From: Escherichia coli
GTDB taxonomy: Bacteria; Pseudomonadota; Gammaproteobacteria; Enterobacterales; Enterobacteriaceae
NCBI RefSeq assembly: GCF_044324875.1
Contig: NZ_CP172186.1
Reading direction: 5' to 3' (one strand)
Length of the DNA stretch: 64,000 bases
In this document: positions 63,435-63,700 of the stretch, one piece after another
Layout of the letters: every line of letters starts with the position of its first letter
Position numbering within the stretch: the first letter of the stretch is position 1
Notes under the pieces: model-generated
What the model saw: only the letters and a program-made list of their open reading frames with translations
Databases searched by the model: none
Told to the model about the DNA's origin: nothing
Translations under genes and position numbers: made by a program

Positions 63435-63700
63435 GAATAGATCGTTATATTTGATAAATCAGAATATTATGCTGATTTGTGTGCAGTGTCTGGAGGATTA
63501 GATCGTTTAAAAATTTTATGCGATCTCTTCTACTAAAAATGATGAAAAACACAGAATAAAAGATCGTTTGTGAAATTGTTCATTTTTTGACACAGTTCAA
63601 AAAAACGACGCTTTTTAGGGGGTTAAAGAGGGCAACTGTAACCCTGAGAAATCGTGTCGGCTTTTCAAAGCGGTGGAAAAGGGGTATATTGCGGATCGTT
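63435..63700. repeat. four GATCGTT-containing motifs, three at about 61-bp spacing, in AT-rich region upstream of traB-like gene
   Basis: tagatcgtta, ttagatcgttt, aaagatcgttt, ggatcgtta read directly; each contains a GATC site. Confidence 0.6.

Follow-up and report, generated by a model that had tools for sequence, protein, structure and literature searches.

The window, that is, the whole 64-kb stretch of DNA that we analysed, belongs to an I-complex (IncK2/Z) plasmid, its end being 99.9% identical to the IncK2/Z plasmid NZ_CP016548.1. Close to this end lies, on the minus strand, a traB-like gene of the NusG/RfaH family (62659..63300), identified by a Pfam match (NusG PF02357, E 5.5e-05, residues 55-153) and by the PGAP annotation of near-identical plasmids. 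Its product is 65% identical to the TraB protein of IncI1 plasmids. Beyond traB are found a traC-like ORF, for which Pfam returned no recognisable domain, and then pilI and the pil genes. The start of traB differs between records, which give either a 642-nt CDS from the ATG at 63300, the longest one annotated, or a 507-nt CDS from about 63166. Since in the long form the NusG domain does not start before residue 55, the first ~45 codons may be a leader rather than coding sequence.

On the plus strand, the replicon starts with the repZ leader pseudoknot region (63839..63988; Rfam PK-repZ, 167 bits, E 3.5e-39). A CopA-like antisense Inc RNA (RNAI) is placed on the minus strand at 63925-63839 with 41.7 bits, a value under the Rfam gathering score, and repA begins just beyond the window end. 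A GATC at 63877-63880 (GGGATCGTG) is located in the loop of structure I of the repZ leader and of the Inc RNA, beside the conserved loop motif TTGGCG; in IncI1, the equivalent position lacks a GATC. Two small ORFs (63587-63817 on the plus strand and 63665-63853 on the minus strand) were taken as non-coding, as neither gave a Pfam match and both overlap the rep leader.

With traB on the minus strand and the RepZ-type replicon on the plus strand, the motifs described below are thus situated in a divergent intergenic region. Consensus scans predicted a promoter on each side of it. Toward traB, a putative sigma-70 promoter on the minus strand (63389..63416, TTGCCA-16-TAATAT, start at ~63382) has a -35 element that is conserved in relatives. 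Toward repY/repZ, the predicted promoter on the plus strand (63662..63690, TTTTCA-17-TATATT, start at ~63697) is nearly invariant in relatives.

In this AT-rich leader, the first-pass annotation had reported four copies of an (A)GATCGTT(T) motif, three of them about 61 bp apart and each with a Dam site. Our motif search of the 64-kb window recovered all of them, GATCGTT being found on the plus strand at 63440, 63501, 63562 and 63694, each copy containing the Dam methylation site GATC. The 8-mer AGATCGTT starts at 63439, 63500 and 63561, with two steps of exactly 61 bp, and the fourth copy, GGATCGTT, starts at 63693, 132 bp beyond the third one. As the traB-like gene is on the minus strand, the motif reads AACGATCT on the tra-coding strand. 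The leader is indeed AT-rich, with only 30% G+C for 63380-63620, and no further cluster of the GATCGTT motif was found elsewhere in the 64-kb window.

It had been asked whether such a spacing would be expected by chance in AT-rich DNA. We thus shuffled the whole window and the local AT-rich segment with preservation of dinucleotides, and looked for evenly spaced triples of any 8-mer with a spacing of 20-150. Such triples appeared in 1 out of 200 whole-window shuffles and in a fraction of 0.0002 of 5000 local shuffles, and chance is therefore rejected. The real window holds one other equally spaced 8-mer repeat, which is a 9-bp tandem repeat at 5206-5272. GATC itself is rarer than expected in the 64-kb window (179 vs ~250). 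The motif repeats are not a composition artefact.

Inspection of the interval revealed two elements that the first-pass annotation had missed, namely a fifth GATC at 63522, with the same core in inverted orientation (CGATCT), and a perfect Lrp consensus at 63460-63474. Each box site was taken, with the strand respected, as a 15-mer in which GATC fills positions 11-14, a register chosen by analogy with the pef box. On this basis, five sites can be described. Site 1 is GATC box 1, CAGTTGAATAGATCG, on the plus strand (63430..63444, centre 63437), and it holds copy 1 of the motif (AGATCGTT at 63439-63446, GATC at 63440-63443). Site 2, on the plus strand (63460..63474, centre 63467), has no GATC and reads CAGAATATTATGCTG, in full agreement with the Lrp consensus of E. 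coli, YAGHAWATTWTDCTR. Site 3 is GATC box 2, TGGAGGATTAGATCG, on the plus strand (63491..63505, centre 63498), with copy 2 (AGATCGTTTAAA at 63500-63511). Site 4 is the inverted GATC box TAGTAGAAGAGATCG, on the minus strand (63521..63535, centre 63528; GATC at 63522-63525), and site 5 is GATC box 3, CAGAATAAAAGATCG, on the plus strand (63552..63566, centre 63559), with copy 3 (AGATCGTT at 63561-63568).

The centres of the five sites are 30, 31, 30 and 31 bp apart, a regularity for which we obtained P = 0.0015 when the consensus and inverted sites were placed randomly between the direct boxes. The 61-bp interval thus corresponds to two periods of a 30.5-bp array. This period is the one to be expected of Lrp sites placed about three helical turns from each other, as known from pap. 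The first-pass annotation had suggested that the repeats may be a phased, GATC-bearing array of regulator-binding sites. At the level of sequence this idea is supported, with a period of about 30.5 bp instead of 61 bp and with five sites instead of three. The fourth copy of the motif, GGATCGTT (63693..63700, plus strand, GATC at 63694-63697), is outside the 30.5-bp register, overlaps the predicted rep-side start point and agrees poorly with the pap box (10/17). From the predicted traB promoter start, sites 1-5 lie at about -55, -85, -116, -146 and -177.

The Lrp consensus that we used is the E. coli one, in the form quoted in PMC5554404. Site 2 is its sole exact match in 64 kb, where 0.02 would be expected, and the sole locus with one mismatch or none. 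When the left halves of the sites are compared with the Lrp half-site YAGHAWA, the fit is 7/7 for site 2, 6/7 for site 4 and 7/7 for site 5, and it is weak for sites 1 and 3 (5/7 and 4/7, respectively). CRP sites were also sought: two matches with two mismatches are found next to box 3 (63569 and 63586), at a chance frequency for the window (27 observed vs 32 expected). These CRP-like half-matches, TGTGAAATTGTTCATT and TTTGACACAGTTCAAA (63569-63601), sit between box 3 and the rep-side promoter, in a highly conserved stretch that includes TTTTTTGACA and AAAAAAACGACG and is nearly invariant.

The boxes resemble those of known Dam-sensitive switches. In pap, Lrp sites 2 and 5 each hold one of the two GATC sites, which have the box TAAAAGATCGTYTAAAT in common (Horton et al., PMC4417163). 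The corresponding window copies read TAAAAGATCGTTTgtga, gattAGATCGTTTAAAa and gaatAGATCGTTaTAtT, and they match the pap box at 12/17 positions for box 1 and at 13/17 for both box 2 and box 3, the core AGATCGT(T) being identical. The likeness of the core is apparent when pap TAAAAGATCGTYTAAAT is set beside TAAAAGATCGTTT and AGATCGTTTAAA of the window; the latter represents 12 contiguous nucleotides common to box 2 and the pap box. The four GATCs of the array are within the top six pap-box matches among the 179 GATCs of the window. In the pef region of pSLT, we found the boxes cAGAATAAAAGATCGc and gAAAAGATCGCAAAAAt (reverse complement), 102 bp apart. Box 3 has 15 nucleotides in common with the first of them (CAGAATAAAAGATCG within cAGAATAAAAGATCGc), and the inverted site 4 matches the second at 14/17 positions in a direct comparison.

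The array and the pap family further share AT-rich DNA between divergent promoters, boxes in both orientations, and GATCs embedded in sites about three helical turns apart, a spacing that we tested on the sequence of the window only. Their architectures differ in other respects. The window has five contiguous sites, four of them with a GATC, whereas the pap family has two triplets with one GATC each. The boxes are spaced by 61/21/40 bp in the window, whereas the pap family displays one inverted pair 102-103 bp apart (102 bp was confirmed in pef). No inverted pair with this 102-103-bp distance is present in the array, which has three direct boxes and one inverted box at +21/-40. Unlike the pap family, the array contains one site that is a full consensus Lrp palindrome, and it is placed at plasmid transfer and replication genes and not at chaperone-usher fimbriae. 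Finally, tblastn with PefI from pSLT and with a PapI query (30% identical to PefI) gave no significant PapI/PefI homologue in the 64-kb window, the best hit having E = 0.16; about 27 kb of the plasmid are outside the window.

The 541-bp region is found in 560 PLSDB plasmids with 87-100% identity. For the analysis of conservation, we retained 12 PLSDB plasmids and ~40 copies from metagenome contigs, corresponding to 39 distinct sequences of the B/O/K/Z type. The metagenome scan relied on the invariant 17-mer AGTTCAAAAAAACGACG and returned 120 loci, mostly chance matches, of which a BLAST filter kept the ~40 true homologues. Across the 39 relatives, the 61/21/40 spacing of the GATCs is kept, except where the first GATC is lost or box 2 is expanded in tandem. 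In box 1, the GATC is kept in 35 of the 39 relatives and lost by a point change in the other four, and position 1 varies only between C and T. The Lrp consensus of site 2 has no mismatch in 23 relatives and one mismatch in 14, most substitutions affecting the degenerate positions H, D and R. The GATC of box 2 is invariant (39/39). In site 4, the GATC position is invariant, position 1 varies only between T and C, and the orientation has changed in four relatives, which differ from those that lost the GATC of box 1. The left half of box 3, CAG[A/C]ATA, is an Lrp half-site that is invariant except at the degenerate H position, and copy 4 is kept in 37 of the 39. Variation within the region is greatest in the spacers that separate the motifs.

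The exceptions to the spacing include the lineage of pSTEC508 (L010), L011 and L012, in which box 2 is expanded to a tandem of two or three AGATCGT units (alignment columns 201-240), the threefold form adding 7 bp between boxes 2 and 3. In the same lineage, the inverted box is replaced by a direct one, AAGATCGAT, with the GATC position unchanged. We also considered an oriC-like unwinding element, in view of the 13-mer-like GATCTCTTCTACT and the tandem AGATCGT, and dropped it, the Lrp reading explaining more. The origin of I-complex plasmids is downstream of repZ. An iteron array was likewise rejected: the repeat unit of 8-12 bp every 61 bp contrasts with closely spaced, initiator-bound iterons of ~17-22 bp, and the replicon is of the antisense-RNA/pseudoknot RepZ type. 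RepZ-type replicons are not known to have iterons.

IncI1 plasmids are not aligned in the array region by megablast, and a sensitive BLAST gave two short HSPs on one diagonal (window 63474-63438 with L013 2142-2179, and window 63703-63660 with L013 1913-1955). On the IncI1 sequence L013, a direct box centred at 2180 maps onto site 1, an exact Lrp consensus at 2142-2156 (centre 2149) onto site 2, a direct box centred at 2118 onto site 3, an inverted box centred at 2087 onto site 4, and an Lrp-like site without GATC centred at 2056 onto site 5. An extra box, centred at 2211, is found beyond the position of the window's site 1. The IncI1 sites are 31 bp apart, four of the five have the same orientation as in the window, and some additional GATCs are out of phase. 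In a third lineage, L014, whose TraB is 54% identical, six GATCs are present in 135 bp, including one AGATCGTT. The GATC cluster is absent from L015 and L016, two more distant TraB plasmids with LuxR and PAS genes. As regards conservation in related plasmids, which the first-pass annotation had proposed to check, the motif therefore keeps its sequence and position in the 39 distinct relatives, and it is kept site for site in IncI1.

One could wonder whether the array is non-functional, the motifs being produced by chance or conserved by hitch-hiking among close plasmids. Some conservation is indeed expected among relatives that are 87-100% identical overall. However, chance is excluded by the shuffle tests, the invariant motifs adjoin highly variable spacers, and the sites are retained one by one in IncI1, which is otherwise unalignable there. 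We thus regard this explanation as extremely improbable: the GATC motif array is a real, selected cis-element.

Altogether, we propose that the region would constitute one cis-regulatory array offering five sites to host Lrp, 30-31 bp apart, that is, about three helical turns. Four of the sites would be pap/pef-type GATC boxes (three direct and one inverted) and the fifth a GATC-free consensus Lrp site, the whole being placed between the divergent predicted promoters of the NusG/RfaH-like activator gene traB and of the repY/repZ replicon. If it behaved as in pap and pef, Lrp would occupy the sites cooperatively and the AT-rich DNA of the array would be wrapped. Lrp binding and methylation of the boxes by Dam would counteract one another, and the methylation state of the boxes would set the firing strength of the traB promoter, and perhaps of the rep promoter. 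The boxes would be fully methylated at rest and become hemimethylated after replication or conjugative entry. The combination of pap/pef-type GATC boxes with a consensus Lrp site designates host Lrp as the likely binding protein. The sequences show the motifs, with their spacing and conservation, and the identity of the boxes to known Lrp/Dam boxes; from them we infer Lrp binding, the effect of methylation, the sign of regulation and the target promoter. On balance we consider it probable that the region acts as a Dam-sensitive five-site Lrp array, through which the traB promoter, and possibly that of rep, would be controlled.

A precedent for such a control of transfer genes exists in the Salmonella virulence plasmid pSLT, where Lrp and Dam control traJ (Camacho and Casadesus 2002, as cited in PMC5013300). 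There, a GATC-carrying Lrp site is located upstream of the gene for the master conjugation activator, which is the arrangement that we propose for the window. In both, expression of the transfer genes would depend on how the DNA is methylated, the hemimethylated state left by replication or transfer included. The traJ region of pSLT has two Lrp sites and one GATC. On the other hand, pSLT is an F-like plasmid, whose TraJ activator is unrelated to the NusG-like TraB of the window. Direct homology to the GATC upstream of pSLT traJ was rejected, its context, tatgttGATCtataaaa, being different and not a pap-type box.

The OxyR/Dam switches (agn43, opvAB, gtr) also have several GATCs in phased sites upstream of a promoter, as in the window, and these switches thereby adopt alternative methylation patterns. 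In opvAB, the OxyR half-sites are 32/41/32 bp apart (PMC4856963), a spacing that differs from that of the window array. An OxyR switch was rejected at this locus, no half-site ATAGnTnnnAnCTAT with two mismatches or fewer overlapping the five sites or copy 4. The nearest OxyR half-site match is at 63376-63390, and such matches occur at chance level in the window (12 observed vs 14.6 expected).

The same boxes could also be operators for another protein recognising approximately AGATCGTT, either plasmid TraC or TraB or a host factor, GATC being then incidental or conferring methylation sensitivity secondarily. The conserved core, A-GATC-GT, is wider than GATC and is retained in three diverged lineages, the tandem of two or three AGATCGT units in one lineage resembles a change in operator or iteron copy number, and the lack of a recognisable domain in TraC would be compatible with such a role. 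However, this hypothesis explains neither why an exact Lrp consensus falls into register with the boxes nor why box 3 has 15 nucleotides in common with the pef box. The absence of a second motif cluster in the 64-kb window gives no sign of a regulon, and an 8-bp site every 61 bp would be unusual for dimeric repressors. A protein other than Lrp as the reader of the boxes thus appears quite unlikely to us.

Another hypothesis is that SeqA, or Dam alone, would be sufficient, the hemimethylated cluster being sequestered after replication or conjugative entry and the flanking promoters being silenced or timed without Lrp. The array holds four GATCs in 125 bp while GATC is under-represented in the window, the pair 63501/63522 has a spacing usable by SeqA (21 bp), a 250-bp stretch of IncI1 contains 8 GATCs, several of them 19-32 bp apart, and SeqA is an ancillary factor in the Dam switch opvAB (PMC4856963). 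Against this, SeqA needs only GATC, and the conserved flanks, the strict 61/21/40 spacing and the GATC-free consensus site would be left unexplained. Most spacings (40 and 61 bp) are also beyond the cooperative range of SeqA, for which GATCs have to be 31 bp or less apart and on one face of the helix. The pair 63501/63522 is the only one within this distance in the window array, and there are several in IncI1. We hold SeqA or Dam acting alone to be very unlikely.

If the array is indeed bound by Lrp and sensitive to Dam, its target has to be discussed. The first-pass annotation had suggested a control region for the transfer regulators: the array does lie in the divergent interval between traB and rep, and either side may be the target, the array being equally well placed for the predicted rep promoter and for the predicted traB promoter. 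In IncI1, the hexamers of the rep-side promoter and their spacing are identical to those of the window and fall on the same alignment diagonal as the array. The distance between the array and this promoter is thus fixed in B/O/K/Z and IncI1 plasmids, whereas the tra side differs by ~1 kb. This fixed distance in both lineages implies that rep may be a target, or even the main one.

On this basis, the same Lrp/Dam array could have the rep promoter as its main target and tune repY/repZ mRNA and copy number to nutrition or to the state of replication. In addition to the common diagonal of the array and TTTTCA-17-TATATT, with a nearest site at about -138, and to the ~1-kb difference on the tra side, copy 4 overlaps the predicted rep start and IncI1 has a AGATCGTT just upstream of the -35 element. 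Moreover, Tn insertions in the Hft region doubled the copy number of pESBL (PMC4288162). On the other hand, these insertions did not raise repZ transcripts (PMC4288162), the rep promoter is predicted only, and a pESI-like plasmid keeps the IncI1-type array although it has lost the rep side. Furthermore, the copy number of RepZ-type replicons is set post-transcriptionally, by antisense RNA and the pseudoknot. A main role at the rep promoter thus seems rather improbable.

The preferred reading, an Lrp/Dam array acting on traB, meets its own difficulty in IncI1. In these plasmids, the array is 300-550 bp away from the Hft region, which holds the traA promoter, and the tra target is therefore less obvious. 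Hft of the IncI1 plasmid pESBL-EA11 is a 270-bp cis region between traA and repY that controls transfer frequency, and the drd11 mutations of R64 map to it (PMC4288162, PMC5801416). Its discoverers call its mechanism elusive (PMC5801416). Hft, which is cis-acting and non-coding, and the array both belong to the rep-to-tra interval of I-complex plasmids. They are nonetheless distinct, Hft adjoining traA and the array being located about 270-520 bp further toward rep, and the window plasmid (B/O/K/Z) is devoid of the Hft-traA module.

This module is flanked in IncI1 by a 45-nt direct repeat (L013 2387-2431 and 3449-3493, 73% identical and 1062 bp apart), the second copy of which stops shortly before the start of traB. 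Only one copy is present in the window, at ~63170-63215, and the array thus directly adjoins the traB promoter and leader. This organisation suggests that IncI1 gained the Hft-traA module by insertion or duplication, or that B/O/K/Z plasmids lost it by deletion. IncI1 also displays an operator-like inverted repeat, TTGTTACACAA-N8-TTGTGTAACAA (L013 ~2268-2297, tra orientation), downstream of the array toward Hft, which has no counterpart in the window.

A published result also has to be considered. When lrp was deleted, pilV transcription from pESI showed no significant change in microaerobic LB cultures (PMC5013300), which weakens a simple model where Lrp activates tra. This is one bulk measurement, in rich medium and with an IncI1-type arrangement. 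In the literature that we searched, no report links Lrp or Dam to I-complex transfer or describes binding, footprints or methylation at the array, and a TraDIS study on a plasmid of the B/O/K/Z type leaves the array region out of its discussion.

A bolder hypothesis would be that I-complex plasmids (IncI1, B/O, K, Z) possess a heritable epigenetic ON/OFF transfer switch, in which Lrp and Dam would be mutually exclusive at the four boxes, traB would be on in a subpopulation of donors, and a newly entered plasmid, whose new strand is unmethylated, would be set ON. We consider this extension unlikely. If true, it would explain at the molecular level both the classical transient high-frequency-transfer (HFT) state and the epidemic spread of I-type plasmids, and it would give the Hft/drd mutations a context.

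The I-complex plasmids (IncI1, IncB/O, IncK, IncZ) are important vehicles for ESBL and AmpC resistance genes. If the proposed control is correct, a host-Lrp/Dam array in front of traB would tie the spread of these plasmids to nutrition and DNA methylation, and heterogeneity among donors would be predicted. It would also extend the pap-type switch from fimbriae to the control of conjugation, with a different architecture and without a PapI partner.

Finally, the other evenly spaced repeat of the window, at 5206-5272, is a perfect 9-bp tandem repeat, TTTCGGTGG x7.4, located toward the 3' end of a minus-strand ORF of 438 aa (5171..6487), where it would encode about seven Pro-Pro-Lys repeats.
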